A DNA stretch of 64,000 nt from Escherichia phage vB_EcoM_CRJP21: the sequence record OQ708376.1. One strand, given 5' to 3'. The notes under the pieces were generated by a model. It saw only the letters and a list, made by a program, of their open reading frames with translations. It did not search any database and had not been told where the DNA came from. Position 1 is the stretch's first letter; every line of letters begins with the position of its first letter. Shown one piece after another: positions 1 to 13,137 of this stretch. The position numbers were made by a program, and so were the translations under genes.

Positions 1-577
1 AGTAGGCAGAGGAAGTCTGCCGTACTTTGTAGTTTCCAAGCTCCTTTTCCATTTTTCAAATTACATCAAATGTAATCAAAAGTAATCACGCAATGATTAG
101 TACTGAATTATTACTTTCACCTTAATTACAATTACCCTTTTACCCTTCGGGGTAAAATTCAATTACCCCTTGAGGCTCCAGCAAAAAGTTGGTTAGTACT
201 CCATCCTAAATCTCGATCCTAAAAATTTTGGAGTACCTATGAAATAAAAGTTGGATCTTCGAAAGTTGAAATTTACGTTGGGACGTTTATGATTTGTGGG
301 ATATAATGATGTTTGTAGACGGGTAGTTCTCAAGAATATCAGTACTGAAAGATGAAAGAAAGTTATTGACTTTATGATTCAGTACTGTATAATGTTCTAC
401 ATAGGGTGATGAGTTGCTGCGAACAATTCATTTACTCTACCTCCTGTCGTGAGACAGTACAGAAAAGATAGTTCCTCCTGTGGTGGTACATCTTTTTGAA
501 CCTCATATGAAAATCGTAATAACAGTACTGATATTAACAGAATGGTGTCAGTACTGATTTTAATCTAAAGCATTATG

Positions 578-597
578 CCACCAGCACAAGCTGGTGG
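578..597. repeat. inverted pair of Chi-like octamers CCACCAGC-acaa-GCTGGTGG (8-bp stem hairpin)
   Basis: direct read of sequence. Confidence 0.6.
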
Positions 598-721
598 ATT
601 CCCTCTAACAGTATTCAGTACTACATGATGGTCTTCATCCTCCTAGGGTAACATAGTGAGGGCTATGATGGCAGTACTGAATACTCCCTTTCAAAAGATA
701 GATCTATGGTATAGTACTGAC

Positions 722-762
722 GGATTTTGGGCGTAGTTACCCTGGATGGATTTTGGGCGTAG
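722..762. repeat. 2x direct repeat GGATTTTGGGCGTAG
   Basis: two identical 15-mers separated by 11 bp. Confidence 0.6.
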
Positions 763-789
763 ATATGTCTAGCCCTCCAGAAGTCTGGA

Positions 790-910
790 AGTAAAGATGG
801 CTATCCATCTAGACGGCTAAACGGCTAGATTTCTGGATGGCTGGATGGCTAGACGTTTGGACGGCTAAACGGCTAGATGGTTACACGTCTGGAAGTATAG
901 ACGGCTAAAT
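790..910. repeat. iteron-like cluster (GACGGCTAAACGGCTAGAT x2, GGATGGCT x3, TCTGGAAGTA x2)
   Basis: short direct repeats in non-coding DNA. Confidence 0.6.
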
Positions 911-1080
911 CAAAATTTTATTTTGTTTTTTCCAATAGTTCCCCTACCGCGTGGGGATAGTTTCCCCGCAGTATCTGGTGTTAGATTTTTCTGAATCTGG
1001 AATCATTATCTTATAAACTGGGGGCAATGTCAACGGCCTGGCCGGATATTTTTAAAAATTTTTTCAGTACTGAATTTTGG

Positions 1081-1145
1081 GCGTAACTATGCACCCGGTG
1101 GGCTTGAGTCTTTCTCGACTTGATGGAACTATTATACAGTACTGG
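1081..1145. repeat. R1 element copy 1 (GCACCCGGTGGG...CTTGATG...CAGTACTGG)
   Basis: about 60-bp element recurring at 3246 and 4778. Confidence 0.5.
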
Positions 1146-1536
1146 AAAAATAAAGCAATACCCTGGAAGCAAAAAAGTTTTAATTAATTTGCTTGCTATC
1201 CTGGGCCGGACTATGGTACTATATTTCAGTACTGAGAAAGTGCGTTTACCTGCTAGGGTGCGGGAGTGTATCCTTTTTTTATATCTTGAATTTTGGACGG
1301 ATCTTCCCACCCCCTGGGGTATCCGCTTTCTCGCGTCTATGTAGTAATTATACGCTTTTTCAGGATCAAGTCAATACCTAAAAACAAAATAATTGAAAAT
1401 AATTTAACGCGTTTAAACGGCCTGTAAAGCCCTGGAATGATTGGAATGGTGCAAATGTATAGCTTATGTGTATTAATGCGTTAGAATGCGTCTGAGGACG
1501 TTTTACGGGGTATAGGGATGATTTAGTGGATTGATT

Positions 1537-1624
1537 CAGTACTGAATAATAGTACTCCTATATAGAAAGATAGTTCCCCTGGATGATTGCAGTACTGAAT
1601 AATAGTACTCCTATATAGAAAGAA
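1537..1624. repeat. tandem direct repeat of a 34-bp unit (CAGTACTGAATAATAGTACTCCTATATAGAAAGA)
   Basis: two copies spaced about 54 bp. Confidence 0.6.
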
Positions 1625-1654
1625 AACTATTTTAAAAGTATTTGTAGAAAGTAC

Positions 1655-1682
1655 TTGCACCGTACTGATAAAAGCGTATAAT
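1655..1682 (+). promoter_or_regulatory. sigma70-like promoter (TTGCAC, 16 bp, TATAAT)
   Basis: consensus-like -35/-10 upstream of first gene. Confidence 0.6.
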
Positions 1683-1696
1683 GTTTTACATCGAGA

Positions 1697-1713
1697 GCGG
1701 GAACACTTCCCGC
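1697..1713 (+). promoter_or_regulatory. palindromic leader hairpin/operator GCGGGAA-cac-TTCCCGC
   Basis: first of about 20 similar GGGGAA-nnn-TTCCCC palindromes placed just after promoters. Confidence 0.55.
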
Positions 1714-1737
1714 TACACATTAAGAGAGATTAAAACG

Positions 1738-2100
1738 ATGGCGACTCAAATCAATAAAATCATGCTTAACCTGGTAAACTTCCGCGATGAGATGAAAGGT
1801 CTTCCGGCTGAAACTGTAAAAATTCACATTGCAGCTTATCGGGAACTTATTGCAATGTTGCCGCTTAAGCGTGAACAATACGCCGCTACTTTGATGCTGG
1901 ATTCAATGATCCATATAATGATCTCAAATGATTTGACGATGGTTTATCAGTATATGGGCGAAAATTTCGCGGTGTGTAGTAAGCCAGTACCAGGGATGGC
2001 AACAACTGAGGAATTGCACGGCTTAAACTTAAAACAAGATGCATGGGATAATATGCCTCGTTTCCTGGTATGGGCTGACAGTGGCAAAATTTACAAATAA
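1738..2100 (+). CDS. hypothetical protein (120 aa)
   Basis: track ORF restarted at internal ATG downstream of promoter and hairpin. Confidence 0.6.
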   Translation: MATQINKIMLNLVNFRDEMKGLPAETVKIHIAAYRELIAMLPLKREQYAATLMLDSMIHIMISNDLTMVYQYMGENFAVCSKPVPGMATTEELHGLNLKQDAWDNMPRFLVWADSGKIYK

Positions 2101-2114
2101 GTTTAATAAAGTAC

Positions 2115-2142
2115 TTGCAAACTATGTTTAATGGCGTATAAT
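2115..2142 (+). promoter_or_regulatory. sigma70-like promoter (TTGCAA, 16 bp, TATAAT)
   Basis: AAAGTACTTGCAA...GCGTATAAT consensus of this region. Confidence 0.65.
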
Positions 2143-2193
2143 GTTTTACATCAGGTGGGGAATAGTTCCCCACTATATAAGAGGATTAAAAAA

Positions 2194-2433
2194 ATGGCTA
2201 AATCAAAAATGTTCTTAGGTCACAAAAACAAAACTCATTGGAATGTAAGCCTTTGGATTAATAACGATGAGGGATTGTATCGGTTGGCCCAGGACTTTAT
2301 TAACGATAGCACTAATCGCAATGATGCGGCCCGTCATATGATGTTATTTTTAGAACAGACTGGACAAGATAAAACACCGGACGGATTCAAATATAGCACT
2401 ACTGCGATCCGTGCGGCGATGGTTGGAATGTAA
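2194..2433 (+). CDS. hypothetical protein (79 aa)
   Basis: internal ATG after promoter, hairpin 2156-2173 and RBS. Confidence 0.6.
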   Translation: MAKSKMFLGHKNKTHWNVSLWINNDEGLYRLAQDFINDSTNRNDAARHMMLFLEQTGQDKTPDGFKYSTTAIRAAMVGM

Positions 2434-2519
2434 TAGAATTTATTTAAAGTACTATCATTTTTTTGCGATAGTACTTTATAATAGTGTTTTATTCATACAC
2501 CAACGATAAGGGCAACAGC

Positions 2520-2786
2520 ATGAAAATTAAGTATTTTGCGACGCGTGAACAAGCTCGGATCGCCGCACGCCAGGACGGGGCAACGTTTAAAGATATGGGC
2601 GTACAATCGGAACGTGGTAAACGTTGGGCCATTGTAAAGCGTAGTACCGCCAGATCATTACAGTACTGGTTAGCGGCCTTAAAAAGTCCCGATAGTGTAT
2701 CGCGTCGAGTGGTAGAAATAAAGCTCGACCGAAAGGGCAACCGCGTGACCGTGTACCGTACTAAAAAGATTGCAGTACTTGAATAA
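2520..2786 (+). CDS. hypothetical protein (88 aa), paralog of 14497..14892
   Basis: shared KYFATREQARIAAR and DRKGNRVTVY motifs; RBS TAAGGG. Confidence 0.6.
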   Translation: MKIKYFATREQARIAARQDGATFKDMGVQSERGKRWAIVKRSTARSLQYWLAALKSPDSVSRRVVEIKLDRKGNRVTVYRTKKIAVLE

Positions 2787-2793
2787 AAAGTAC

Positions 2794-2821
2794 TTGCAAA
2801 CTATGTTTAATGGCGTATAAT
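2794..2821 (+). promoter_or_regulatory. sigma70-like promoter (TTGCAA, 16 bp, TATAAT)
   Basis: near-identical to promoter at 2115. Confidence 0.65.
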
Positions 2822-2873
2822 GTTTTACATCGAGAGCGGGAACTCTTCCCGCCTATAACCTGGAGTAATGAAA

Positions 2874-3104
2874 ATGACTAATATGTATATGACTGAAGTT
2901 AAAACCGTAAAAGATACTACCACGAATAAAACTACTTACTTACAGCGGATCTGTGGTGTATGGCAACGTATCAGCAAATCAAAGTACTTTAAATTAACAT
3001 CATATGCAAACCGTTCGGATTCATTCAGTACTGAAATAAAAGGTAATAAAGTACACCAATACGGCACTTATTATTATTATAGCCTGGACGCGATTGCAGT
3101 ATAA
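2874..3104 (+). CDS. hypothetical protein (76 aa)
   Basis: ATG 8 nt after GGAG; hairpin 2836-2852. Confidence 0.55.
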   Translation: MTNMYMTEVKTVKDTTTNKTTYLQRICGVWQRISKSKYFKLTSYANRSDSFSTEIKGNKVHQYGTYYYYSLDAIAV

Positions 3105-3186
3105 GCAGTTTACAAATCTTTACAATTGCCGGTATTGACTTATTTTGTCAGTACTGGCATAATGTATTCATTGGCAGATAAGCCGT

Positions 3187-3214
3187 AGCCCATAGGGTGC
3201 GGGAGTGTATCTAT
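3187..3214. repeat. R2 motif copy (AGCCCATAGGGTGCGGGAGTGTATCTAT)
   Basis: about 28-bp motif recurring at about 9172, 13194, 16469, 18721. Confidence 0.55.
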
Positions 3215-3245
3215 AGAAAAATTAGTTTAGTATAGTTACAATTGT

Positions 3246-3303
3246 GCACCCGGTGGGTTAGCTGTTGTCATGGGGTATATTATACCAGTACTTGATAATG
3301 CTG
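3246..3303. repeat. R1 element copy 2
   Basis: matches 1081..1145 and 4778..4833. Confidence 0.5.
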
Positions 3304-3354
3304 TCAATACTTTTTTTTTACTATTCAGTACTGAAAACTATTTTTAAAAAGTAC

Positions 3355-3382
3355 TTGCAAACTATGTTTAAAGGCGTATAAT
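3355..3382 (+). promoter_or_regulatory. sigma70-like promoter (TTGCAA-TATAAT), upstream member of tandem pair
   Basis: consensus boxes. Confidence 0.6.
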
Positions 3383-3389
3383 GTTTTAC

Positions 3390-3465
3390 ATCAGGACGGG
3401 GAACGAAATAAGTAACTTCCCGTTAAGTAGCCCAGGAGTAAGGCACACGAAAAACTCCCCTGATA
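3390..3465 (+). ncRNA. candidate structured leader / small RNA (copy 1)
   Basis: about 75-nt element with two imperfect hairpins between tandem promoters; second copy at 13300..13375. Confidence 0.35.
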
Positions 3466-3472
3466 AAATAGT

Positions 3473-3500
3473 TTGACAAATGTTTTTAAAAGCGTATAAT
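3473..3500 (+). promoter_or_regulatory. sigma70-like promoter (TTGACA, 16 bp, TATAAT)
   Basis: consensus boxes, proximal to gene 3533. Confidence 0.6.
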
Positions 3501-3532
3501 ACTTACATCAACTACTGAATGAGGGTTACAAA

Positions 3533-4144
3533 ATGAAAACTATCACTACTACTACTTATGTTATGGCTTTTTCTGAATTGAACGCAGAACAACAAACGTC
3601 AGCTATCGAACTGGTTCGGGAACGTGAAAAAAACTCAAACGACAATTATTTTTCTGAAAGTGAAATTGAATACTATAAAGAAACAGTACTACCGGAATAT
3701 GGCATTAATGACGCTGAAATACAATTCAGTGGTTTTTGGTCCCAGGGTGACGGTGCATCAATCAGTACTGACCACGTTGACGCAGTGAAGTTTTTACGCA
3801 AGGTAAGAGCATTAACTAAGTATCGCTCAATCCGTCACTTGCTGAATGAAGATGATTTGGCGATGAGTGTAAAACGTTCGCACTCCCACTACTCGCATGA
3901 GAATACTGTAAGCGGGTACATTGAATCGGCTTACACTGATTTAACCGCAAAACAAGAAACGTTAGTTAATGAGCTTGAGGAACTACTCACTGAAACTATT
4001 CGTGAATTGTCCCGCAAGTTGTACCGTGATTTAGAGAATGCATATGAGGATCAATTCACTACTGAAAACATTACGGCACTGATTGAGGGTAACGAATATC
4101 AATTCAATGTTATTGATGGCGTAGTAGAATCAATCGAATATTAA
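3533..4144 (+). CDS. hypothetical protein (203 aa)
   Basis: track ORF; RBS GAGGG 7 nt upstream. Confidence 0.7.
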   Translation: MKTITTTTYVMAFSELNAEQQTSAIELVREREKNSNDNYFSESEIEYYKETVLPEYGINDAEIQFSGFWSQGDGASISTDHVDAVKFLRKVRALTKYRSIRHLLNEDDLAMSVKRSHSHYSHENTVSGYIESAYTDLTAKQETLVNELEELLTETIRELSRKLYRDLENAYEDQFTTENITALIEGNEYQFNVIDGVVESIEY

Positions 4145-4156
4145 TTTAAAAAGTAC

Positions 4157-4184
4157 TTGCAAACTAAGTTTAAAAGCGTATAAT
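4157..4184 (+). promoter_or_regulatory. sigma70-like promoter (TTGCAA, 16 bp, TATAAT)
   Basis: consensus boxes. Confidence 0.6.
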
Positions 4185-4236
4185 ACTTTATATCGAGAGC
4201 GGGAATAGTTCCCGCTACTAATGAGGAATACTACAA

Positions 4237-4401
4237 ATGAATACTTTTACCTTCGCTCAATTGAACGCCCTGGATGTATTGTCTGATGCTTTGCGGGATG
4301 CAACTGAAAGCGGTTTATTTGACAATGTTGACATTCACCCTGATGTAATTAATAATTTTTGTGATGCTATCGCAGAAGTACTGGAAGATCTAAAAAAATA
4401 A
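4237..4401 (+). CDS. hypothetical small protein (54 aa, not in ORF track)
   Basis: hand translation MNTFTFAQLNALDV...; promoter + hairpin + RBS upstream. Confidence 0.55.
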   Translation: MNTFTFAQLNALDVLSDALRDATESGLFDNVDIHPDVINNFCDAIAEVLEDLKK

Positions 4402-4411
4402 TAGAAAGTAC

Positions 4412-4439
4412 TTGCAATTAGTTTTCAGTACTGTATAAT
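4412..4439 (+). promoter_or_regulatory. sigma70-like promoter with extended -10 (TTGCAA ... TGTATAAT)
   Basis: consensus boxes. Confidence 0.65.
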
Positions 4440-4489
4440 GGTTTACATCAAAGGGAGAAATGGTTCTCCCTGGTAATGAGGAAAATACA

Positions 4490-4711
4490 ATGGCTAATAT
4501 CACTACTCTTTCCCAACTGGAAGCACTGGTTAAATCTATGCGGGAACATGCTGACAAAATCGGCGTACAAGATCCAGCCGTTTGCTTCTGCGACGAATTG
4601 AATGATGATACCCTGGTAATAGCAGAAGTCCAGGACGTTTCTAACTATTCCTCGCGTTACACTGGCGGCGTAGCAAATAAAGGTGACTTCTGTTTATACC
4701 TTACAAAATAA
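4490..4711 (+). CDS. hypothetical protein (73 aa)
   Basis: internal ATG after leader hairpin 4453-4470; track start lies inside the hairpin. Confidence 0.6.
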   Translation: MANITTLSQLEALVKSMREHADKIGVQDPAVCFCDELNDDTLVIAEVQDVSNYSSRYTGGVANKGDFCLYLTK

Positions 4712-4712
4712 C

Positions 4713-4748
4713 AACGCGGGGAGATAATAACTCCCCGTTACTTTTTCA
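4713..4748 (+). terminator. rho-independent terminator (GC stem + T-run)
   Basis: CGGGGAG-ataataa-CTCCCCG then CTTTTT. Confidence 0.6.
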
Positions 4749-4777
4749 GTACTGAATCATTTAATAGACGGATCTCG

Positions 4778-4833
4778 GCACCCGGTGGGTTAGTGACTGT
4801 TTCGTCTTGATGTAGTAATTATGCCAGTACTGG
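4778..4833. repeat. R1 element copy 3
   Basis: GCACCCGGTGGGTTAG...CTTGATGTAGTAATTATGCCAGTACTGG. Confidence 0.5.
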
Positions 4834-4954
4834 ATGCACTTGTCAACAATTATTTTCCAAATACTTTTTATTAAAATACTTGCAATTAGTTTTTAAACGC
4901 GTATAATGTTTTGCATAGGGGGAGCGGTTCCCCTGGTAACTAAGGAATAATAAA

Positions 4955-5191
4955 ATGCTTGAACAAATCAAATCAACGTCTTCGAATGTAACGGGAACGG
5001 TAGCACACTTTACTAGTGATGAATCGCGGGGCGTTCCCTATTGTGCTGTACATGTAAACACTGAGGGTAACTACTGGTTTACGGTTTACGGATCATATTC
5101 ATTTGGACGGCCTGGACATCAAAAAATTCTGGATAAAGTACAACCAACGGGTAAAAATATCACTGCCGAAATGTTTTATAAAAAATCATAA
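4955..5191 (+). CDS. hypothetical protein (78 aa)
   Basis: track ORF; promoter + GGGGAGCGGTTCCCC hairpin + RBS. Confidence 0.65.
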   Translation: MLEQIKSTSSNVTGTVAHFTSDESRGVPYCAVHVNTEGNYWFTVYGSYSFGRPGHQKILDKVQPTGKNITAEMFYKKS

Positions 5192-5275
5192 AGTACTTGC
5201 AATTAGTTTTTAGTACTGTATAATATTTTACATCGCAAGGGGAAACGGTTTCCCCTGGTAACTAAGGATAATCAA

Positions 5276-5575
5276 ATGAAAATTGCAATCATCGCCCTGG
5301 CTTTATCTGTTTCCTCTTTCGCTGTTAATGCGTCATTAGATGTAAGTAGTGAAAAATTCATTCAGTGCACTGTTGCAATGACCGATGAAAGAACTGGCGA
5401 GATTGTATTAAAGGATTTAGAGATCCAGCCGGAAGCATTTAAAAACGGCCCGTTCCATGAAGAAGACGAAAACGGTAGCACGACAATTTATTATGATGCC
5501 AGTACTAAACGCGGTTCGGTCACTGTAATGGATACCGAGAAAGTAACTCATACCGGCGTTATTAATTGCCGTTGA
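5276..5575 (+). CDS. small secreted/periplasmic protein (Sec-type signal peptide)
   Basis: N-terminus MKIAIIALALSVSSFAVNA with AxA-like cleavage site. Confidence 0.6.
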   Translation: MKIAIIALALSVSSFAVNASLDVSSEKFIQCTVAMTDERTGEIVLKDLEIQPEAFKNGPFHEEDENGSTTIYYDASTKRGSVTVMDTEKVTHTGVINCR

Positions 5576-5596
5576 TAGATACTACGGGGTAACATC

Positions 5597-5827
5597 ATGA
5601 CTAAGCGAATTGTTTTACTTAACGAAAGCAGTACTACACAACTACTTAACGCCGTGCATTATGATATTGAAACGAGCGTTAATCTTATCAGTACTGTAGT
5701 TCTGTTGGACACTGGAAAGGTAGCCAATGATAAAGCGATTGCAGGTATACTAACGGATCTTGTGCCTGGTAGCAGTGCACCAATAACGTTAAATGGTAAA
5801 GTGTTTAATATTTTACTCACTGATTAA
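5597..5827 (+). CDS. hypothetical protein (76 aa)
   Basis: track ORF followed by terminator. Confidence 0.55.
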   Translation: MTKRIVLLNESSTTQLLNAVHYDIETSVNLISTVVLLDTGKVANDKAIAGILTDLVPGSSAPITLNGKVFNILLTD

Positions 5828-5833
5828 GTACAT

Positions 5834-5857
5834 AGCCCACCTGGTGGGCTTTTTTGT
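5834..5857 (+). terminator. rho-independent terminator
   Basis: AGCCCAC-ctg-GTGGGCT + TTTTTTG. Confidence 0.7.
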
Positions 5858-6060
5858 TTTTGTAGTATCGTAGTACTGAGATACTTTGAAAATAGTTTTA
5901 AAAAAGTAGTTGACATTACCACAGAAAAGCGTAGAATGTATTACATCAAGACGGGGAGCACTAAGTAGACCGCCAGTAAGTCGAACGAAAAACTGGACAC
6001 GTCGAGAAAACTTTGATACACTAATAAACGTAAACTAAACTTTAATTGAGGATTTATAAA

Positions 6061-6543
6061 ATGGCTAATGTAAAATCATTCATCAAAGCACTGGTAGCAA
6101 ATGAAACTAACGTCGCGGCTGAGATCCTGGCTGAACTGGATAACGATACCATGAAAGCGGTACGCAACAATTTTAACATTGCGTACAGTGAAGCTAAAGA
6201 ACTGCAAGCCAAAAAGGTAGCAGAACTGGAAGAACAGAAAAAAGCCCGTGAAGCAGAACTACAAGCAACAATTGAAAGTATTCAGGCGGCAGTGTCTGGA
6301 TTGGATCTGGAAGTGGTTGTAGAAATGGCACATAAAGCCCTGGCGGTTAAGTACGGTGAAGATAAGCCGGAATCTAAACCTAAAAAATGGATTCAAGAAC
6401 GTGTTACTGTAGTACTTGATAACGGTGAAGAACATTTGATTCCTGTACGCGGTAACTGCATTGCGGTAGTACTGGACGCTATCAAAGAAAGCGGTATGAC
6501 TCGCGAGGAATGGATCGAAGCTCATCGCAAAGTTGAAGCATAA
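6061..6543 (+). CDS. hypothetical protein (160 aa)
   Basis: ATG 8 nt after GAGGA; promoter TTGACA/TAGAAT at about 5908-5936. Confidence 0.65.
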   Translation: MANVKSFIKALVANETNVAAEILAELDNDTMKAVRNNFNIAYSEAKELQAKKVAELEEQKKAREAELQATIESIQAAVSGLDLEVVVEMAHKALAVKYGEDKPESKPKKWIQERVTVVLDNGEEHLIPVRGNCIAVVLDAIKESGMTREEWIEAHRKVEA

Positions 6544-6564
6544 CAATTAAAGTACTGAATCACT

Positions 6565-6592
6565 AGCCCACCTTAAACAGTGGGCTTTTTTG
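6565..6592 (+). terminator. rho-independent terminator
   Basis: AGCCCAC-loop-GTGGGCT + TTTTTT. Confidence 0.7.
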
Positions 6593-6610
6593 TGTCTGTA
6601 GTATTCCAGT

Positions 6611-6680
6611 CCACCAGCACCGCCTAGAATCGATTCTAACGCATTAAACTGATTATCTGATACATCGCCCTAGCTGGTGG
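6611..6680. repeat. inverted Chi-like octamer pair (CCACCAGC ... GCTGGTGG) flanking inverted R4 motif
   Basis: direct read. Confidence 0.55.
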
Positions 6681-6828
6681 CGTTAAGGTCGTTAGAATGC
6701 GATTGAGAGCGTTTAAAGTATTTTGCAAAAAGTAATAAAAAGTACTTGCACGATTAAGAGATTAGCGTATAATGTTTTACATCGAGAGGGGGAAACGGTT
6801 CTCCTTCCAAATCAAAGGAATCAAAACA

Positions 6829-7056
6829 ATGGCTATTATCATTACTCGCGTATCTGGTACTACTGGCAACGAACAAGTAGTTGCAGTCATTACTAACAAG
6901 GCAGGTGCGGAATTGCAAAATGCAATGAATACCTGGGCCGTTAATGAGTTCGGTCAGTGGGCAAGTGTAGCATACATTGAAACCTATCAAGTGCCGTCGA
7001 TTAGTTTAACTGATTTGGGCGTTGAGCGTATCCTTTGCCTGGATGAATTAAATTAA
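6829..7056 (+). CDS. hypothetical protein (75 aa), MAII-start paralog group
   Basis: internal ATG after promoter and hairpin; N-terminus resembles 7143 and 10054 genes. Confidence 0.6.
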   Translation: MAIIITRVSGTTGNEQVVAVITNKAGAELQNAMNTWAVNEFGQWASVAYIETYQVPSISLTDLGVERILCLDELN

Positions 7057-7142
7057 AAAAAGTACTTGCAAAGTAAATCGAATAAAGTATAATACATTAC
7101 ATCAAGGGGAGAAATGATTCTCCCCACTACAAGGAAACTAAA

Positions 7143-7355
7143 ATGGCTATCATTACTAAAATCAAAGTTAACAAGACTATCGTTAAACTGGCAGAAGTGA
7201 AAGAAGGTTATAAAGTATCTTGGTGCGGTATGTATCGGACGTTCGCAGATATAGATGATGCGATCAATTATTACAGTGACACGGTTAAAAACTTTGTTCG
7301 TGCTGATGTGGTTATGGCAGTGGCAACATATAAAGCAGCGAAAGAAAGTAAGTAA
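7143..7355 (+). CDS. hypothetical protein (70 aa), MAII-start paralog group
   Basis: track ORF; promoter + GGGGAGAAATGATTCTCCCC hairpin. Confidence 0.65.
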   Translation: MAIITKIKVNKTIVKLAEVKEGYKVSWCGMYRTFADIDDAINYYSDTVKNFVRADVVMAVATYKAAKESK

Positions 7356-7374
7356 AAATATTATCACAGTACTA

Positions 7375-7403
7375 TTGACATAGTTTGATAGTACTGGCAT
7401 AAT
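7375..7403 (+). promoter_or_regulatory. class-II promoter (AGTACT-flanked TTGACA, 17 bp, CATAAT), no leader hairpin
   Basis: same architecture at about 9990, 10258, 18047. Confidence 0.6.
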
Positions 7404-7446
7404 AGATTTTATCAAGACGACACATATTAATTTAAGGAATACTAAA

Positions 7447-7770
7447 ATGGCTAAAACTATCATCAACACCGTTTCCCTGGCTGCAATCCATGCAATCAAT
7501 GTTGACGGTAAACGTTGGACTGATTCATATGGCAATACTTATCATTCTTGTCATGTAAGCGTTGAACTGGATAACGGCTTGAATGATCTGGCGGTTGAAT
7601 CATTTACTTATGGCTATGAGGATGCATATCAACAAACGGCGGTATCACTCTTAAAGGAATCAGTAGACGGGCTTGATACTGTTGAAACCTCCCTCTATCG
7701 TTTGTGCAATGATCTTAATATCCCGTTGCATTGTACTGTACAGGATGTAAAACGTAAAAAAGATCTTTAA
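7447..7770 (+). CDS. hypothetical protein (107 aa), paralog of 14078..14401
   Basis: shared RWTD..GNTYHSC..ETFTYGY..DVKRKKD motifs. Confidence 0.65.
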   Translation: MAKTIINTVSLAAIHAINVDGKRWTDSYGNTYHSCHVSVELDNGLNDLAVESFTYGYEDAYQQTAVSLLKESVDGLDTVETSLYRLCNDLNIPLHCTVQDVKRKKDL

Positions 7771-7850
7771 TTAGCTTTACTTTATGCAGATACTTTGATA
7801 TAGTGTCTGCATAGGGGAAAGAAATTAAATCAACTTAAGAGGAAAGTAAA

Positions 7851-8120
7851 ATGAAAAATATCAGTACTTTAATCGATGCAGGTACACATGTTCGTCGGTC
7901 TATGGTTGCAACCAGTTCTACAAAACAAGTAGCGAGCGGTTATCTTGTATTTGTGCACGATGGAAAACTCCTGGAACGTTCAATCAATTTTGATGTTAAA
8001 AACAATTGCCGTTTTATTATCTTTCGCCGTGAACAATATAAAATTGATTTGCCAGCGAAGCCCATTAGCGGGGCGTACAACGTGCAATCATTGTTTGAGC
8101 GTCAACCTTACACCTATTAA
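7851..8120 (+). CDS. hypothetical protein (89 aa)
   Basis: track ORF; RBS AAGAGGAAAG. Confidence 0.55.
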   Translation: MKNISTLIDAGTHVRRSMVATSSTKQVASGYLVFVHDGKLLERSINFDVKNNCRFIIFRREQYKIDLPAKPISGAYNVQSLFERQPYTY

Positions 8121-8171
8121 TCAAAACATCGTTAGCGGTCGATTTAGGCCGCTTATATTGGGGATTATACC

Positions 8172-8444
8172 ATGAACGTTAATCAAGTACTGAATGAGAT
8201 CGAAAGCATCATTAAACCGATGAAGCGTACTGATGCTATGTTAACACCGGAAGAATGCCGCCTTTATGAGCGTTACAGCGTCGAACAAGTCCAGGCAATG
8301 GCTATGGCTACCCCAGCCGTTTCACCGCCTGAGAATGCGTTACAGGACGTTACAGGGGATTATATCATTAATCCAGTACTAGGGAAGATGACTGCAATCA
8401 CCGAAGATCAAAAAGACTACTTAAGCCAGTACTTAAAAGGTTAA
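8172..8444 (+). CDS. hypothetical protein (90 aa)
   Basis: track ORF. Confidence 0.5.
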   Translation: MNVNQVLNEIESIIKPMKRTDAMLTPEECRLYERYSVEQVQAMAMATPAVSPPENALQDVTGDYIINPVLGKMTAITEDQKDYLSQYLKG

Positions 8445-8449
8445 TTAAT

Positions 8450-8659
8450 ATGCTTACTGTACAGGATAAGATCGACATCTTAAAGGTTAATATGTATGTG
8501 ATTGATGCCGTACCTGGTAAAGTATTTGCATACGATGATAGTACTGTAAGCGATTTCTACTATAGCCAGGACGTGGGGGATCTTTCTGTACAGTCGGTTA
8601 TTGAAAACGTAGTTAATGCAGCGTATGAGCATTTACTTTCAAATAGTACTTGCAATTAG
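8450..8659 (+). CDS. hypothetical protein (69 aa)
   Basis: track ORF; next promoter overlaps its 3' end. Confidence 0.5.
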   Translation: MLTVQDKIDILKVNMYVIDAVPGKVFAYDDSTVSDFYYSQDVGDLSVQSVIENVVNAAYEHLLSNSTCN

Positions 8660-8727
8660 TTTTTAAACGCGTATAATGTTTTACATGAAGGGGAGAAATG
8701 ATTCTCCCCAATAACAGGAGAAACAAA

Positions 8728-8880
8728 ATGAAACAATACAACGCTCGGTTTGATGTTACTATCGGTAACGGCAAAGGTCAATTCTCTTTCAGTACTCGCC
8801 GCAGTTATACAGAAAACTTCCTGCGTAATTGTGCACTGACCGCCGCTCAAATTAAACACTATTTTCAGGCTAAAAAATGA
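8728..8880 (+). CDS. hypothetical protein (50 aa)
   Basis: ATG 7 nt after CAGGAG; promoter + hairpin upstream. Confidence 0.55.
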   Translation: MKQYNARFDVTIGNGKGQFSFSTRRSYTENFLRNCALTAAQIKHYFQAKK

Positions 8881-8966
8881 AATCATTAGCTTATTACAGT
8901 TCGGCCCTGGTCGGTGCATTGATCGCGGCATTGTTAGTAACCTATCTATTCTTTATGGTGATTTAA
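8877..8966 (+). CDS. small hydrophobic peptide (29 aa, single predicted TM helix)
   Basis: ATGA overlap with upstream stop; MKSLAYYSSALVGALIAALLVTYLFFMVI. Confidence 0.4.
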   Translation: MKSLAYYSSALVGALIAALLVTYLFFMVI

Positions 8967-9110
8967 ATGAATCCAACAGGTTTAAACTATAAAAGTTGTT
9001 CTGCATTTACGAAAGCAAATAAAGCGAATGCACGTAAAGCGAAAGTACAGGAATACATCAAGCAAGGCATGACGCGAAAAGCGGCGATTATAAAAGCTAA
9101 AAATAAATGA
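8967..9110 (+). CDS. small basic protein (47 aa)
   Basis: TAAATG coupling; K/R-rich. Confidence 0.4.
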   Translation: MNPTGLNYKSCSAFTKANKANARKAKVQEYIKQGMTRKAAIIKAKNK

Positions 9111-9202
9111 AAAAAGTGGTTGACTTCGGTCAGCCATTTTGTTATTATATATTCATTGAGAGATAGCTCACTAGCCCACAGGGTGCAGGAGTGTATCTAT
9201 TG
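9111..9202 (+). repeat. intergenic cassette copy A: hairpin-embedded promoter (R3) + R2 28-mer
   Basis: TTGACT-17-TATTAT inside inverted repeat, then AGCCCACAGGGTGCAGGAGTGTATCTAT. Confidence 0.55.
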
Positions 9203-9320
9203 TATGAGTATTGAGTACTGAAAACTATTTTTAAAAAGTACTTGCAAACTATCTCAATAAGCGTATAATGTTTTACATCGAAAGGGGAAACGGTTTCCCC
9301 TGGTAATAAGGAAACAAATC

Positions 9321-9662
9321 ATGACTATCTCAATTGCTCAATCTAACTTTGAAAATGAAATCATCGCCCAGGCACTGCGTTTAAATGATGGTCGGGCCGA
9401 AATTAATTACGGTTTCAATTCAGGCGGTTGCGAAAAATATCAGTACTTTGTAACGGCTGATGGCGGTGTCCTGGGTATCAATACAGTTATTGTAAACATC
9501 CAAAAAATTAATTTCAATGATCCAGACGATAGCCAGTTTTACATCACTGGCGTAGACGTGAACTATGAGGATGACTCACTAACTGATGATCACACTGGCG
9601 AGCGGTTAGAAAGTGCATACGGTGAAGATGATTATCAGTCCGGTCCAGAAGATTTCGAATAA
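9321..9662 (+). CDS. hypothetical protein (113 aa)
   Basis: track ORF; promoter 9242-9269 + GGGGAAACGGTTTCCCC hairpin. Confidence 0.65.
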   Translation: MTISIAQSNFENEIIAQALRLNDGRAEINYGFNSGGCEKYQYFVTADGGVLGINTVIVNIQKINFNDPDDSQFYITGVDVNYEDDSLTDDHTGERLESAYGEDDYQSGPEDFE

Positions 9663-9758
9663 TATAAAAAAATAGTTTGACAATAGATTATAGTACTGTA
9701 TAATAGTTTACATCAAGGGGAGAAAAACTTCTCCCCACTAACAGAGAGAGAAAACAAA

Positions 9759-9971
9759 ATGGCTAATATCCGGTCGAAATTAAAAAATGCAAAACAAGTT
9801 TTATTTTCAGATCATGAATACTTTAATAAAGATATTACAGGAGTTACAAGTATCAAGGAAGTAAAAGAAAAAACCGGCGTTTTGTGTGATGTGCGATTAG
9901 TTGGAACATTTGGGAATAACGTGCTATATCGCTGCGGTGATTACAATTTTACACTGACTATCATTAACTAA
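9759..9971 (+). CDS. hypothetical protein (70 aa)
   Basis: track ORF; promoter TTGACA...TGTATAAT + hairpin. Confidence 0.6.
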   Translation: MANIRSKLKNAKQVLFSDHEYFNKDITGVTSIKEVKEKTGVLCDVRLVGTFGNNVLYRCGDYNFTLTIIN

Positions 9972-10053
9972 AAATATTATCACAGTACTATTGACATAGT
10001 TTGATAGTACTGACATAATAACTTTTATCAACTACACTATTAAGGAATTAAAA

Positions 10054-10233
10054 ATGGCTATCATCGCAAAAACTGAAATCGTTGGTCTGGATTCTATCAT
10101 CATGACGTTTGAAGATCAAAAAGGTATGTATGTAGTTTCATATGGTGATTATGTTCGGGAGTATGAAACGGTAGACGAAGCCTTTGAAAGTTACATTCGC
10201 CAGGTGAATAAAGCATACGACGATTACCGCTAA
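10054..10233 (+). CDS. hypothetical protein (59 aa, not in track), MAII-start paralog group
   Basis: hand translation MAIIAKTEIVGLDS...; class-II promoter upstream; replaces track minus ORF 10100..10300. Confidence 0.55.
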   Translation: MAIIAKTEIVGLDSIIMTFEDQKGMYVVSYGDYVREYETVDEAFESYIRQVNKAYDDYR

Positions 10234-10332
10234 AATATATTACCAGTACTATTAAAGATATTGACAACGTTTGATAGTACTGTATAATAAGTTTTATCAA
10301 CAGTAGTTAACTTAACCTAAGAGAGAAATAAA

Positions 10333-10476
10333 ATGATCGCACTGGATTCATTCATCGACGCAGTACTGGCAAAAACTGGCGAGGATCTGACCGCAGAACA
10401 ATACGCAATGATCGAGCAATGCCAGCAAGACGGTAAATCGGTGAAAGATACTGTTAAGATTATCCGCAAGATGTAA
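10333..10476 (+). CDS. hypothetical small protein (47 aa, not in track)
   Basis: class-II promoter + RBS AAGAGAGAAA; terminator follows. Confidence 0.5.
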   Translation: MIALDSFIDAVLAKTGEDLTAEQYAMIEQCQQDGKSVKDTVKIIRKM

Positions 10477-10482
10477 GATTAT

Positions 10483-10512
10483 AGCCCACTGGTTAACGCT
10501 GGTGGGCTTTAA
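10483..10512 (+). terminator. candidate terminator hairpin (contains Chi octamer GCTGGTGG at 10498-10505)
   Basis: AGCCCAC-loop-GTGGGCT, weak T-run. Confidence 0.4.
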
Positions 10513-10581
10513 TTCATTACCCTATACAATGCCAGTACTAAACCGTTTATCTCGTTAGAATGCGTTACAGGACGTTTAACA

Positions 10582-10779
10582 ATGATTAGCATGAAATCAG
10601 TACAAAAACAAATAGAAACATTATCAAAAATTAAACGTAAACAGTACTCCTTAGAATATACAATCAATGGTAACTATCATCTAATGAAAGAGAATAATTT
10701 TATAGTCATTGATGAATCATTGCAAATCATTAGTATAGTACTGAAAGCATTAATCAATGACAGAAAAAAATTAAAATAA
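10582..10779 (+). CDS. hypothetical protein (65 aa; alt start 10591)
   Basis: track ORF preceded by R4 motif. Confidence 0.45.
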   Translation: MISMKSVQKQIETLSKIKRKQYSLEYTINGNYHLMKENNFIVIDESLQIISIVLKALINDRKKLK

Positions 10780-10874
10780 ACTATTGACAATATCATCAAG
10801 TACTGGCATAATACTTACATCAAGACGAGAACGTCACTAACCCATAGGGTGCACAAATGTAACTGTATAATATT

Positions 10875-10905
10875 GATCAAAAAATGATCTGATCAATACT
10901 TGATC
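10875..10905. promoter_or_regulatory. cluster of four GATC sites (three TGATCA palindromes) in 31 bp
   Basis: direct read; intergenic. Confidence 0.5.
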
Positions 10906-11110
10906 AATTTGCGTAAAGTAGTATAATTCTATGCAGTTGGTTAGACGAAAGGTTATGATTAGTAGTGCAAGTGTATAAAAATTTTCATGGTGTATCGTTT
11001 CGCACATATGGGGATGAATATGTGGTATCATGTGGATTGGAAAAAGTAAGAACAAGTAATATTATTGTCGCATTACAGTACTATAGTATTTTTATAATGA
11101 GGTTAAAATA

Positions 11111-11368
11111 ATGGCTGTAGGATTCGCGAAAGATGGGGCCGAACAAGACGAGATTAACGCAGTGATTCAGGCCGCCGTTAACCACGCTAGAAAGCAAATT
11201 AACGCACAAATAGAATCACTGATACATTGCCTCGACTGCGGCGATATAATCCCTGAGAATCGACGCCAGGCCGTTAAGGGATGTAAGTACTGCATAACTT
11301 GCCAGGAGGATCATGATAGTACTTTTAAACGTCCCCCGCGTAATTGTTGGCATAGATCTATGAGATAA
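11111..11368 (+). CDS. TraR/DksA-family C4 zinc-finger protein
   Basis: CLDCGDIIPENRRQAVKGCKYCITC matches CxxCG-x3-IP-x2-RR-...-C-x2-C signature. Confidence 0.65.
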   Translation: MAVGFAKDGAEQDEINAVIQAAVNHARKQINAQIESLIHCLDCGDIIPENRRQAVKGCKYCITCQEDHDSTFKRPPRNCWHRSMR

Positions 11369-11431
11369 AAAGTATTGACAGTACTGAAAGATAGTGTATA
11401 ATGTTTTATATCTTAACTGAGGATAGAAATC

Positions 11432-11788
11432 ATGGGAATACAACATATCACGCGTACTACTGACAATGGCGAGATCACTGGTTATCAAGTACAGGGCAAA
11501 GTAGCACAATTGCAGTACTGGTTTGTTAAACGTGGAATCATTGCACCGGATCTTGATTATGACCGTGTAGCGTTTATTGATTCTCTTTATGTTGATCCTG
11601 ATAGTCGGGGCAATGGTGAAGGTAACGAATTAATGAATGCCTTTATTGATGCCGCCGATGATTCAGATTGTATCATTTTAGAATGCGATACGGGAGAAGA
11701 TAACGCCTTTAATCTTAAAGAATGGTACGAAGGTTTCGGATTCGAGGTACTGATCGATAGTGAATATCCTATCATGATTTTATCATAG
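11432..11788 (+). CDS. putative GNAT-like acetyltransferase (small)
   Basis: RGNGEGNELMNAFIDAA resembles GNAT motif A; assignment tentative. Confidence 0.4.
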   Translation: MGIQHITRTTDNGEITGYQVQGKVAQLQYWFVKRGIIAPDLDYDRVAFIDSLYVDPDSRGNGEGNELMNAFIDAADDSDCIILECDTGEDNAFNLKEWYEGFGFEVLIDSEYPIMILS

Positions 11789-11866
11789 TACTTGCATTTA
11801 GTTTTCAGTAGTGTTATAGTACTTACATCAAGGGGAAACATCTTCCCCTACTAAGAGGAAATGAAA

Positions 11867-12055
11867 ATGGAAAACTTATCAAGTATTTTAGTACAAGATG
11901 ATTTCGGTAATCCTGGAAGTGCTATCATTGTTCGGGGTAATAAAGCAACATTTGTTATTGCTGGTGGACCTGTACAGCGTAGCATTAAAAACAATGCCGT
12001 TACTATTAATAATGTACGCTATCGCTTAGATAAAGAATTGATTCATAAACTGTAA
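11867..12055 (+). CDS. hypothetical protein (62 aa)
   Basis: second ATG, 7 nt after AAGAGGA. Confidence 0.55.
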   Translation: MENLSSILVQDDFGNPGSAIIVRGNKATFVIAGGPVQRSIKNNAVTINNVRYRLDKELIHKL

Positions 12056-12082
12056 TATTAATTTAATAGAGGATAACAATAA

Positions 12083-12406
12083 ATGTACATTCATACTACT
12101 ATCACAAAGGAAGTCCGTTGCCAGTTCGAAAGTATTCCGGGCGTATGTTTCATCACTGGTACGTTTTCCCCTGGTGATCGTGATAATCCAGTACTGTTAC
12201 AATTACGCCATCCATCATGGGATAAAGCATTTGATCTACCGTTGAATGAATTCGCAACTACTGCTGAAAAGTACATTAAAAATATTCGCGAGAATGATCG
12301 ACTATTCATTAATGCTTTTAGTGATTCCGCGTTAAGCGAGATCCACGGTGTATTGGTTGCAATCATGGAATCAATGGAGAAAACTAAATTCAAACAAGGT
12401 GAATAA
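12083..12406 (+). CDS. hypothetical protein (107 aa)
   Basis: track ORF; RBS AGAGGA. Confidence 0.6.
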   Translation: MYIHTTITKEVRCQFESIPGVCFITGTFSPGDRDNPVLLQLRHPSWDKAFDLPLNEFATTAEKYIKNIRENDRLFINAFSDSALSEIHGVLVAIMESMEKTKFKQGE

Positions 12407-12412
12407 AAACTA

Positions 12413-12440
12413 TTGACAAGATAATCTAGTACTGTATAAT
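12413..12440 (+). promoter_or_regulatory. sigma70-like promoter with extended -10 (TTGACA, 16 bp, TGTATAAT)
   Basis: consensus boxes. Confidence 0.65.
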
Positions 12441-12489
12441 AAGTTACATGAAGGGGAGAAATGATTCTCCCCACTGAGAGGAAAGAAAA

Positions 12490-12702
12490 ATGCAAGGTCA
12501 ACTAATCGTTCGTAAATGGTCTGATACTAACGCTAAACCGTGGGATGTACAATACATCGGACCGGATGGGGTATCACGTTATCAGCCTGGCGTAACGCAT
12601 AGTACTGAGCAATATGCCGCCGCTCACCGCGAACGCCTGTTAGAATCCATGAAACAGGGATACGGTGAAAAATTCATTCAAGATCATTGGCTGAAAGATT
12701 AA
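12490..12702 (+). CDS. hypothetical protein (70 aa)
   Basis: track ORF; promoter + hairpin. Confidence 0.6.
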   Translation: MQGQLIVRKWSDTNAKPWDVQYIGPDGVSRYQPGVTHSTEQYAAAHRERLLESMKQGYGEKFIQDHWLKD

Positions 12703-12719
12703 TATAAGGAGTACAGCTT

Positions 12720-12812
12720 ATGCAAATGAATCCGATGATTATTGTTTTAGCTGTACTTATGATCATTCATGCAATAGTAGAAGTATTAACGCAATCAGGA
12801 GTAATAAAATGA
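12720..12812 (+). CDS. small hydrophobic peptide (30 aa, predicted TM)
   Basis: strong RBS TAAGGAG 8 nt upstream; MQMNPMIIVLAVLMIIHAIVEVL... Confidence 0.5.
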   Translation: MQMNPMIIVLAVLMIIHAIVEVLTQSGVIK

Positions 12813-13128: not shown

Positions 13129-13137
13129 AAATAATTG

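Follow-up and report, generated by a model that had tools for sequence, protein, structure and literature searches.

An untranslated leader at the terminal repeat of a Rak2-like jumbo phage carries an array of predicted MetJ boxes

What is the role of the first 1,650 nucleotides (nt) of Escherichia phage vB_EcoM_CRJP21 (record OQ708376.1)? This stretch, the start of a 64,000-nt piece of DNA analyzed as a whole (here called the window), is crowded with repeats, and a sequence-only reading had put it forward as a candidate genome end, replication origin, or packaging region. We find that 1-1650 is almost certainly the untranslated leader at the physical left end of the genome, the head of an Asteriusvirus direct terminal repeat (DTR) of the PBECO4/121Q/fEgEco12 type. 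It contains an array of contiguous 8-bp units that resembles the operators of the host repressor MetJ. For the leader with its predicted MetJ-box array, taken as a whole, we regard the case for and the case against as evenly balanced.

The position of the genome end was established by comparison with relatives. Megablast with window positions 1-1700 matched 41 phage records. Every one is a Rak2-like jumbo myovirus placed in Asteriusvirus, the genus of PBECO4, 121Q, and relatives, and the best match was Ecwhy_1 (99.7%). Base 1 of the window is also base 1 of five records (fEgEco12, BAU.Micro_ELP-22, vB_EcoM_E9.1, BF17, and vB_Ec-M-J), and identity to fEgEco12 is 98.9% across 1-1700, counted from fEgEco12 base 1. 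In vB_Ec-M-J, direct terminal repeats are annotated as 1-21,525. The DTR of fEgEco12 spans 20,993 bp according to PhageTerm, and its end fragments were confirmed with ten restriction enzymes (PMC13070987); that of Sharanji spans 20,668 bp. Homology places the right boundary of the DTR in CRJP21 at window position 20,152, giving a repeat of ~20.15 kb. Full-length relatives contain at least two places per record that match the window start. In fEgEco12, the second DTR copy begins at 353,741, after ~300 bp of unique non-coding DNA with three copies of CAGTACTG. This concatemer-type junction reads ...cccacta/AGTAGGCAGAGG, given for the left terminus as ...cccacta/AGTAGGCAG (the slash marks the junction). 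Because base 1 coincides with the mapped Asteriusvirus left terminus, 1-1650 is the head of the left DTR copy, and the genome end proposed earlier is borne out by the shared record starts, the vB_Ec-M-J annotation, and the fEgEco12 termini determined by PhageTerm and digestion:

1, no strand: left physical end of the virion DNA, where the DTR starts.

The same region had been described as lacking any supported open reading frame (ORF), and this also stands: the six longest ORFs in 1-1650 had no Pfam or PHROG match. Nothing is annotated in the leader of the hand-curated relatives fEgEco12, vB_Ec-M-J, 121Q, and A4; some automatic annotations place five to six hypothetical ORFs there. The first DTR gene starts with an ATG at 1738, and ~56 small plus-strand genes lie along the DTR. 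As a packaging region, the leader could qualify in the trivial sense only that the terminus is here; the two DTR boundaries have no motif in common, as they gave no significant local alignment and their flanks, compared over 40 nt on each side, did not share a single 6-mer. The inner boundary (20,152) falls in a non-coding gap, right after a 12-bp inverted repeat (AAAAAGTCAAGG...CCTTGACTTTTT, 20,030-20,093), and directly precedes a TTGACT-type promoter of the first unique gene.

What, then, does the leader carry? Its most distinctive component is the 8-bp array:

779-906, plus strand: array of sixteen 8-bp units, of which fourteen contiguous in-register boxes (795-906) and one at 779-786 pass the met-box thresholds.

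We scored the window with the half-box weight matrix and thresholds of Augustus and Spicer (PMC3228920), under which a box must reach at least one-quarter of the consensus score and a site at least the whole of it (12.58 bits), with at least two adjacent boxes. The fourteen adjacent boxes at 795-906 reached 102.8 bits against this threshold of 12.58. In order, they are AGATGGCT ATCCATCT AGACGGCT AAACGGCT AGATTTCT GGATGGCT GGATGGCT AGACGTTT GGACGGCT AAACGGCT AGATGGTT ACACGTCT GGAAGTAT AGACGGCT. Only two sites qualified in the 64-kb window, and the second (two boxes, 14.3 bits, 35,512-35,527) is at chance level. As a positive control, 7.5 kb of E. coli K-12 returned exactly the metJ/metB (31.2 bits) and metF (24.9 bits) operators, four boxes each. 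Among 200 random 64-kb sequences, 136 gave two boxes, 30 gave three, one gave four, and 33 gave none. The repeat density that had drawn attention to the region is therefore real and far above chance (a 14-box run versus at most 4 boxes in random sequences). Its description as iteron-like repeats was accurate in part: GACGGCTAAACGGCTAGAT does occur twice (812-830 and 860-878), but GGATGGCT is exact only twice (835 and 843) and not three times. A third near-copy, AGATGGCT, lies at 795, and fEgEco12 has three copies of GGATGGCT. That description overlooked the 8-bp register of the "iterons," as well as CAGTACTG as the dominant repeat and the leftward promoters.

The array resembles E. coli MetJ operators in its contiguous AGACGTCT-type 8-bp boxes, in its scores per box (mean of 7.3 bits, compared to 6.2-7.8 in natural operators), and in its register-specific base preferences. 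Base frequencies in the boxes correlated with the MetJ matrix at r = 0.91 in Rak2-like, 0.89 in T5-like, and 0.82 in T7-like phages and at r = 0.94 in E. coli operators. This correlation is restricted to one register, the other seven giving r of at most 0.03. For the array at 779-906, r was 0.90, again in a single register. However, the phage arrays are larger, with 14 to 16 boxes (28 in an Aeromonas phage) versus 4 in the scanned controls; natural MetJ operators have two to five boxes. The setting differs too, because the phage array is not upstream of a methionine gene but sits in the terminal repeat of a virulent phage, and half of its boxes carry G at position 6. No promoter of a methionine or S-adenosylmethionine (SAM) gene is present at the array, which lies within the gene-free leader between orphan promoters. 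The metJ gene is annotated in E. coli K-12. A phage-encoded MetJ homologue was ruled out: tblastn of E. coli MetJ against 50,697 phage records returned only host contamination.

We then asked how widely the array is distributed. Used as a blastn query, it matched 85 phage records, and the 28-box array of Aeromonas phage AhSzq-1 matched 95. The carriers are Rak2-like jumbo phages (Asterius-, Mimas-, and Eneladusvirus), T5-like Demerecviridae (of Vibrio, Aeromonas, and Providencia), and T7-like Autographiviridae (PGT2, phiKT, and KPV811). Arrays of the Rak2-like phages are homologous: they lie 650-810 bp from the record start, contain 13-16 units, keep the odd box ATCCWTCT, and are followed by the hairpin module listed below. 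Length variants within Asteriusvirus differ by +8, -8, or -16 bp only. PGT2 has nine boxes in 72 bp (38-109 bp from the end), inside its ~260-bp DTR and present at both ends. Vibrio Thalassaviruses carry the array 10-130 bp from the record start, and in AhSzq-1 it is located next to the pre-early genes A1 and A2, in a non-coding block. For 94 of the 95 array-bearing records, the host belongs to Enterobacterales, Vibrionales, or Aeromonadales, with Xanthomonas phage XbC2 as the exception; these three are among the five gammaproteobacterial orders to which MetJ is confined (PMC3228920). In contrast to the phage records, neither plasmids (0 of 72,556 records) nor complete E. coli genomes (0 of 5,426) contained such an array, so a plasmid-centromere or prophage origin was rejected.

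Sequence variation within the arrays also bears on how they may be read. The four Rak2-like arrays comprise 63 boxes, 35 of them distinct. In IMG/VR, all 24 arrays of control patterns contained only one or two distinct units within four boxes, compared to at least three in 8 of 17 met-box arrays. That phage arrays keep the pattern and vary the sequence points to a reader protein. To our knowledge, MetJ is the only known reader of this pattern, and given that no phage MetJ homologue was found, the economical assumption for three unrelated phage families is that they have a host factor in common as reader. The longest array found, 36 consecutive AGATGTCY boxes (356 bits), lies at 7257-7544 of a 17-kb IMG/VR contig, near the contig end. 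Four further IMG/VR contigs of 12-18 kb share a 4-box site (GGATGTTT GGACGTCT AGATGTTT AGATGGTT). In L020, the only one of the four whose ORFs were read, this site is flanked by a cI-like repressor module on one side and a large helicase gene on the other, in a satellite- or prophage-like context, where it could serve MetJ control or as the iterons of that element.

In Klebsiella phage fENko-Kae01, the slot of the array is occupied instead by Fur-box-like sequences (700-800), the best matching GATAATGATAATCATTATC at 16 of 19 positions. Ten windows there matched at 13 or more of 19 positions, compared to 1.25 in shuffled sequences (P about 0.01). This swap fits the idea of a slot for host repressors. 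A similar Fur-like box lies between convergent units in fENko-Kae01 (1034-1060), Serratia phage BF (1034-1052), and RaK2.

Several observations weigh against MetJ as the reader, or against this explanation of the leader more broadly. First, G occupies box position 6 in about half of the phage boxes, whereas natural boxes have T in 87% and G in only 10%. Second, Xanthomonas phage XbC2 carries the array, and its reported host should lack MetJ. Third, neither T5 itself nor fENko-Kae01 has a met-box array, so the array is dispensable for a DTR lifestyle and, given its absence from T5 proper, is not a universal feature of the T5 family. Fourth, a scan of one genome per bacterial species with a degenerate 4-box pattern gave at least 120 matches, and those listed were mostly in phyla without MetJ (Bacteroidota, Gemmatimonadales, Anaerolineae), nearly all of them perfect or near-perfect 8-bp microsatellites. 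The scan is consequently unusable as taxonomic support, and it weakens the notion that the pattern implies MetJ. Fifth, two control patterns of equal degeneracy occurred at 16 and 7 IMG/VR loci, compared to 16 for the met-box pattern, so an 8-bp array is nothing special in itself. Sixth, T5- and T7-type phages degrade host DNA, which would make derepression of host met genes a weak payoff. Seventh, proximity to the terminus in three families hints at an end-related role that a pure "sponge" does not explain. Finally, identity between distant relatives is high at 1000-1500, but the identity profiles look mosaic and may reflect recombination rather than constraint; we therefore abandoned conservation of 1000-1500 as proof of constraint. 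The bacterial matches listed also included multi-copy arrays of RGAYGGYT units, which resemble the phage units and often form inverted pairs 10-40 bp apart, in metagenome-assembled genomes of Gemmatimonadales, Anaerolineae, and Saprospiraceae without MetJ.

Proximity to the terminus is also where the strongest alternative begins. The array, perhaps with the whole leader, could be a structural or packaging element associated with the terminus and read by phage proteins (a terminase small subunit, an end-binding protein, or a ribbon-helix-helix protein), which would mark the DTR cut or duplication, or hold the last-packaged, first-ejected DNA. The resemblance to met boxes would then be coincidental. 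Consistent with this, arrays lie near record ends in three DTR families at the distances given above, perfect GGATGGCT arrays occur at the ends of 35- to 40-kb viral contigs, G at box position 6 departs from the MetJ consensus, and XbC2 is reported on a MetJ-less host. Ribbon-helix-helix proteins generally read contiguous short repeats, such as the omega heptads and the ParG boxes with their 8-bp period. However, three unrelated families with unrelated terminases would each need a reader of the same 8-bp consensus, and it is unlikely that one such protein is common to a podovirus of 42 kb and a myovirus of 350 kb. In addition, the jumbo-phage array lies 0.65-0.8 kb from the cut, no motif is common to the two DTR boundaries, and the terminus of fENko-Kae01 is built the same way but lacks the array. 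Confinement to hosts of MetJ orders would also be left unexplained. We consider this alternative unlikely.

A better candidate for end recognition lies closer to the terminus. The anatomy of the leader was derived from an alignment of seven Asteriusviruses plus more distant genera, which distinguished these elements next to the end:

5-21, plus strand: terminal hairpin GGCAGAGGAAGTCTGCC, 4 bases from the end, kept in five of seven aligned relatives and partly in A4.
56-88, plus strand: 10-bp tandem repeat TCAAATGTAA in about 3.3 copies, with one extra copy in vB_Ec-M-J.
195-236, no strand: terminus-proximal element, an inverted repeat (AGTACTCCA...TGGAGTAC) around two CCTAAA motifs (205 and 218, 13 bp apart).

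Bases 1-175 are the least conserved part of the leader and are replaced in EJP2. Positions 176-258 are almost invariant (one variable column) in five of seven Asteriusviruses and carry few substitutions in A4 and EJP2, the latter with an additional duplication. Copies of this 176-258 element that are ~92% identical lie 86-175 bp from the end in fENko-Kae01, whose end is mapped, and in Munch; similar copies are found at 70-135 in XbC2. The first 340 bp of T7 contain 11 CCTAAAG motifs, many of them 13 bp apart, and the 10-mer CCATCCTAAA is common to T7 and the leader. The predicted DNA fold of the element (170-265) was not significant (z = -0.9). Judged by its conservation, 195-236 is the best candidate for an end-recognition or packaging signal. 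A packaging role for 176-258 is compatible with several of the readings weighed here, which are not all mutually exclusive with it.

Between this element and the first gene, the leader holds promoters, putative transcripts, and further repeats:

366-393, plus strand: promoter TTGACT-16-TATAAT (-10 at 388) of the early-promoter family, sigma-70 type, with CAGTACTG abutting the -10.
399-565, plus strand: candidate non-coding transcript from that promoter, ending in a hairpin of two CAGTACTG copies (523-556) and a U-run.
722-762, plus strand: two GGATTTTGGGCGTAG repeats, with diverged copies at 1072-1086 and 1288-1302 within leftward units.
943-975, plus strand: CCTACCGCG, hairpin GGGG-ATAGTTT-CCCC, and GCAGTATC, a module that always follows the array slot.
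1005-1033, minus strand: promoter-like TTGACA-17-GATAAT (-10 at 1010; 11 of 12 matches) aimed at the array, kept except in 121Q.
1060-1158, minus strand: promoter (-35 at 1153-1158; -10 at 1131-1136; CAGTACTG-TATAAT) and non-coding unit, with a paralogue at 4740-4835.
1240-1374, minus strand: the most widely conserved element, promoter TTGACT-16-TATAAT (1374-1347) followed by TACTACATAGACGCGAGAAAGCGG and the long imperfect palindrome ACCCCAGGGGGTGGGAAGATCCGTCC...GGATACACTCCCGCACCCTAG.
1527-1623, plus strand: two 44-nt units with a 53-bp period, each with CAGTACTG-AATAATAGTACT, varying in copy number among relatives.
1655-1737, plus strand: early promoter (AGTACTTGCA...GCGTATAATGTTTTACATC), the first that is linked to a gene, followed by the 5' hairpin and ribosome-binding site (RBS) of the first DTR gene; right limit of the leader, with a coding sequence annotated in relatives.

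The rightward promoter at 366-393 had been noted earlier as a consensus promoter; it is near consensus, but its spacer is 16 nt rather than 17. Its TTGAC...TCAGTACTGTATAATG core is kept in all seven relatives. The downstream region (399-565) contains no ORF and folds as RNA at -48.9 kcal/mol (z = -4.4), with a terminator-like site at its end, and a search of Rfam with 1-2400 gave no match at E of 1 or below. The early-promoter signature (-10, then nTTnnCATC) has 30 matches in the DTR, ~27 of them with full context. Three lie in the leader without an ORF, and most of the matches are found ahead of genes that have an RBS and a GGGGAAnnGTTCCCC 5' hairpin. Almost all small DTR genes are preceded by a separate stereotyped promoter of this kind, consisting of aaAGTACTTGCA or GTATTGACA, 17 nt, TATAAT, and gTTTTACATC (~27 sites, 1650-20,152; for example, 1655-1737, 2115-2195, and 16,840-16,920), and the GGGGAAnnGTTCCCC hairpin may be a stability or regulatory element. 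As judged from these motifs, the leader promoters are probably active.

Leftward units are the other transcriptional component, and their relationships were judged by inspection of aligned units. Common to them are a hairpin with a GAGAAA loop, a second hairpin of the form ACCCnnnGGGTGS, and CGYCCAAAATTCA, which is the other strand of the repeat GGATTTTGGGCG named in the sequence-only reading. The non-coding unit of 1060-1158 contains the GAGAAA-loop hairpin, GCCCACCGGGTGC, and CGCCCAAAATTCAGTACTG. No certain position could be assigned to an "R1 element" reported earlier, which probably corresponds to the promoter unit with CAGTACTG at 1058-1150 (paralogue at 4740-4835). The promoter and leader of the 1352 unit are kept in four genera, with fENko-Kae01, XbC2, and RaK2 among the carriers, sometimes with flipped orientation, and the 1240-1374 element has blastn matches in RaK2, K64-1, and phiKp_21. 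A terminator-like hairpin with a T-run at 1255-1281 on the plus strand faces this element. Paralogues of the leftward units at about 3258, 4790, 10,840, and 16,471 form long imperfect palindromes with a facing unit. We infer that the leftward units are small non-coding transcription units. Orphan promoters with ACCCnnnGGGTGS copies lie at about 3130-3300, 4715-4860, 10,770-10,900, and 16,430-16,500, some of them convergent around long imperfect palindromes. Such orphan units recur, with flips of orientation, as conserved elements of fENko-Kae01, XbC2, CBB, and RaK2 and represent a candidate family of sense/antisense small RNAs. A minus-strand mini-ORF of five codons with a strong RBS (AGGAGG-ATG AAG ACC ATC ATG TAG, 620-650) lies in the path of the leftward transcripts and is kept in six of seven relatives.

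The remaining repeats reported earlier are largely as described. Both copies of GGATTTTGGGCGTAG are present (722-736 and 748-762), with the diverged copies additionally at 1072 and 1288. The tandem 34-bp repeat consists of two exact 34-mers (1537-1570 and 1590-1623), but these are 19 bp apart rather than head-to-tail; the units that contain them lie directly upstream of the first early promoter. The module next to the array (943-975) has conserved flanks, and across genera its stem takes four forms, GGGG/CCCC, CTGGT/ACCAG, CTAGT/ACTAG, and CGGAATAT/ATATTCCG, indicating compensatory change.

The Chi hairpin reported earlier is present as well, between the first transcript and the array:

578-597, no strand: Chi palindrome CCACCAGC-acaa-GCTGGTGG, with the minus-strand copy at 578-585.

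Chi (GCTGGTGG) occurs 12 times in the 64-kb window, compared to 0.37 expected (30-fold), and 11 of the 12 copies are inside the DTR. Plus-strand copies lie at 590-18,790 and minus-strand copies at 578, 6611, and 58,765. Chi acts on RecBCD in one orientation only. RecBCD that enters from the left end would thus meet the minus-strand copy at 578 first, and nine copies on the plus strand are oriented toward the right end of the right DTR copy. This layout suggests RecBCD-driven recombination between the terminal repeats. The palindrome is kept in fENko-Kae01 with a different loop, reduced to its left-end-active half in XbC2, and lost in A4 and EJP2. Its loop is ACAA in CRJP21 and vB_Ec-M-J and TTGT, the reverse complement, in fEgEco12, 121Q, and JNE01, as if the hairpin had flipped.

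The palindrome CAGTACTG is the commonest 8-mer of the window (62 copies, compared to 0.7 expected). Ten copies lie in 1-1650 (6.1 per kb), where pairs of copies form hairpins. Elsewhere in the DTR there are 1.2 copies per kb, and 35-64 kb has 1.0 per kb, but 20,153-35,000 contains only one copy. Examples lie at 2661, 3026, 35532, and 63960, and 43 copies fall within predicted genes in no single codon phase. The shorter AGTACT occurs 254 times, compared to 17 expected, an excess due in part to its presence in the early promoters (AGTACTTGCA at the -35 and AGTACTG-TATAAT at the -10). CAGTACTG/AGTACT may be a binding or modification site for some factor. TrpR was considered and dropped as a binder of CAGTACTG because the motif lacks a CTAG core.

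Could all of this be debris? The leader might be a graveyard of decayed early-gene cassettes and slippage repeats whose only function is to host the terminus. The three orphan promoters do have the same architecture as roughly 30 gene-linked ones, several repeats vary in copy number between close relatives, 1-175 and 300-700 diverge strongly in A4 and EJP2, and identity patterns look mosaic. However, genera with only ~70% or no identity elsewhere in the leader have their modules in one and the same order (CCTAAA element, CAGTACTG, Chi, array, CCGCG-hairpin, leftward unit). The hairpin beside the array has four compensating stems, and neither the box pattern nor the ~128-bp length of the array has been lost, even with 35 distinct boxes. 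Decay as the explanation of the leader is therefore improbable.

Replication from this region is the least probable of the alternatives. Iterons would bind an initiator, and transcription from the flanking promoters would serve to open the DNA or to prime it, as at the origins of T7 or T4. T4 oriF and oriG form R-loops, and the convergent and leftward promoters around palindromes could in principle do the same here. The dense repeats also adjoin AT-rich stretches (runs at 1040-1065 and 1375-1410, in a genome of only about 36% GC overall), and a helicase gene lies directly downstream of the 4-box array in the satellite- or prophage-like contigs (four contigs, ORFs read in L020). Nevertheless, the origin proposed earlier finds no support: the units are contiguous and 8 bp long, unlike helically phased iterons of 17-22 bp; 1-22,000 contains no DnaA box (TTWTNCACA), on which grounds readings as an oriC-like region or as one like the T5 injection stop signal were rejected; no initiator, primase, or helicase gene is nearby, the DTR holding small hypothetical early genes only; cumulative GC skew rises steadily with no turn; and in T5-like relatives the origins lie mid-genome, outside the repeat (Davison preprint).

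Returning to MetJ, we judge the chance that it binds the array in vivo, as predicted from the boxes, to be about even. If so, MetJ with its corepressor SAM would polymerize cooperatively along the ~130-bp array once the DTR enters the cell. The genome end would then be separated from the leftward promoters by a nucleoprotein block that depends on SAM. At hundreds of DTR copies, the arrays would sequester MetJ from the host met regulon. Host sigma-70 promoters would fire rightward (388) and leftward (1352, 1136, and 1010) into non-coding units that are rich in hairpins and probably yield small RNAs; some of these units would converge around long palindromes. The Chi palindrome, 578 bp from the end, would turn RecBCD entering there from a nuclease into a recombinase. 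Any specific downstream consequence of MetJ binding is doubtful at best.

How does the leader compare with known phage ends? It resembles an enlarged T7 left end, not an iteron origin. Like that of T7, it is a gene-free stretch at the physical left end of a DTR genome, with host sigma-70 promoters pointing inward and at least one toward the end (in T7, A0 leftward and A1-A3 rightward; in the leader, at the level of consensus matches only), and with CCTAAA at 13-bp spacing near the terminus together with the shared CCATCCTAAA. Unlike the T7 end, however, the leader is twice as long and lies wholly inside a 20-kb repeat, whereas that of T7 is next to a 160-bp repeat; it has only two CCTAAA copies versus 11; and its met-box array, Chi palindrome, and CAGTACTG are absent from T7 1-420. 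Transcription-driven DNA entry is a feature of T7 that is not known for CRJP21.

The left terminal repeat of T5 offers a second comparison. It too contains large conserved non-coding blocks, rich in repeats, in inverted repeats, and in palindromes, inside a long DTR with early genes. Host DnaA has been proposed to bind arrayed sites in the region of the T5 injection stop signal, and T5-like phages of Vibrio, Aeromonas, and Providencia have met-box arrays in a similar non-coding DTR region. In contrast, the T5 region lies at the inner edge of the repeat and the CRJP21 leader at the outer end, T5 has no met-box array, and two-step transfer is not known for Rak2-like phages. As for injection control, which the sequence-only reading also raised, the hallmark of the T5 injection stop signal, paired DnaA boxes in large inverted repeats (Davison preprint), is missing, with no DnaA boxes in 22 kb. 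As a working analogy only, the array also recalls datA and the sites of omega and ParG, with many adjacent short sites, cooperative loading, and a possible sink or nucleoprotein block. The datA locus titrates DnaA, and the omega heptads and ParG boxes are contiguous short-repeat sites of ribbon-helix-helix proteins. However, those sites are bound by the host's or plasmid's own proteins, whereas here a phage would exploit a host repressor.

The DTR end has already been published for close relatives, and untranslated terminal-repeat leaders are known from T7 and T5. Mapping of the ~20-kb terminal repeats in Rak2-like jumbo phages is itself recent. The reports on these jumbo phages that were consulted do not mention the leader or its repeats. 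A literature search for MetJ or met boxes in phage genomes, CAGTACTG, and other repeat strings returned nothing relevant. New here is a leader with a super-array of predicted host-repressor boxes that is common to three phage families. We tentatively propose, at somewhat less than even confidence, that virulent DTR phages of three unrelated families carry MetJ super-arrays of 9 to 36 boxes in their terminal repeats as a high-capacity, SAM-dependent landing pad that caps or insulates the entering end or titrates MetJ, the latter to reprogram methionine and SAM metabolism of the host. Equally tentatively, as part of the landing-pad reading, the Fur-box swap in the fENko-Kae01/Munch lineage may point to general non-coding "host-repressor traps" at phage genome ends. 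If true, a phage would capture a host metabolic repressor with bare DNA. This would have consequences for SAM-dependent processes (restriction-modification, bacteriophage exclusion [BREX], and methylation) and for the handling of the first-entering DNA, and it would give a function to the long-puzzling short-repeat arrays near T7- and T5-type genome ends. Regardless of MetJ, the mapped end, the orphan bidirectional promoters, the Chi palindrome, and CAGTACTG provide handles on early jumbo-phage infection.

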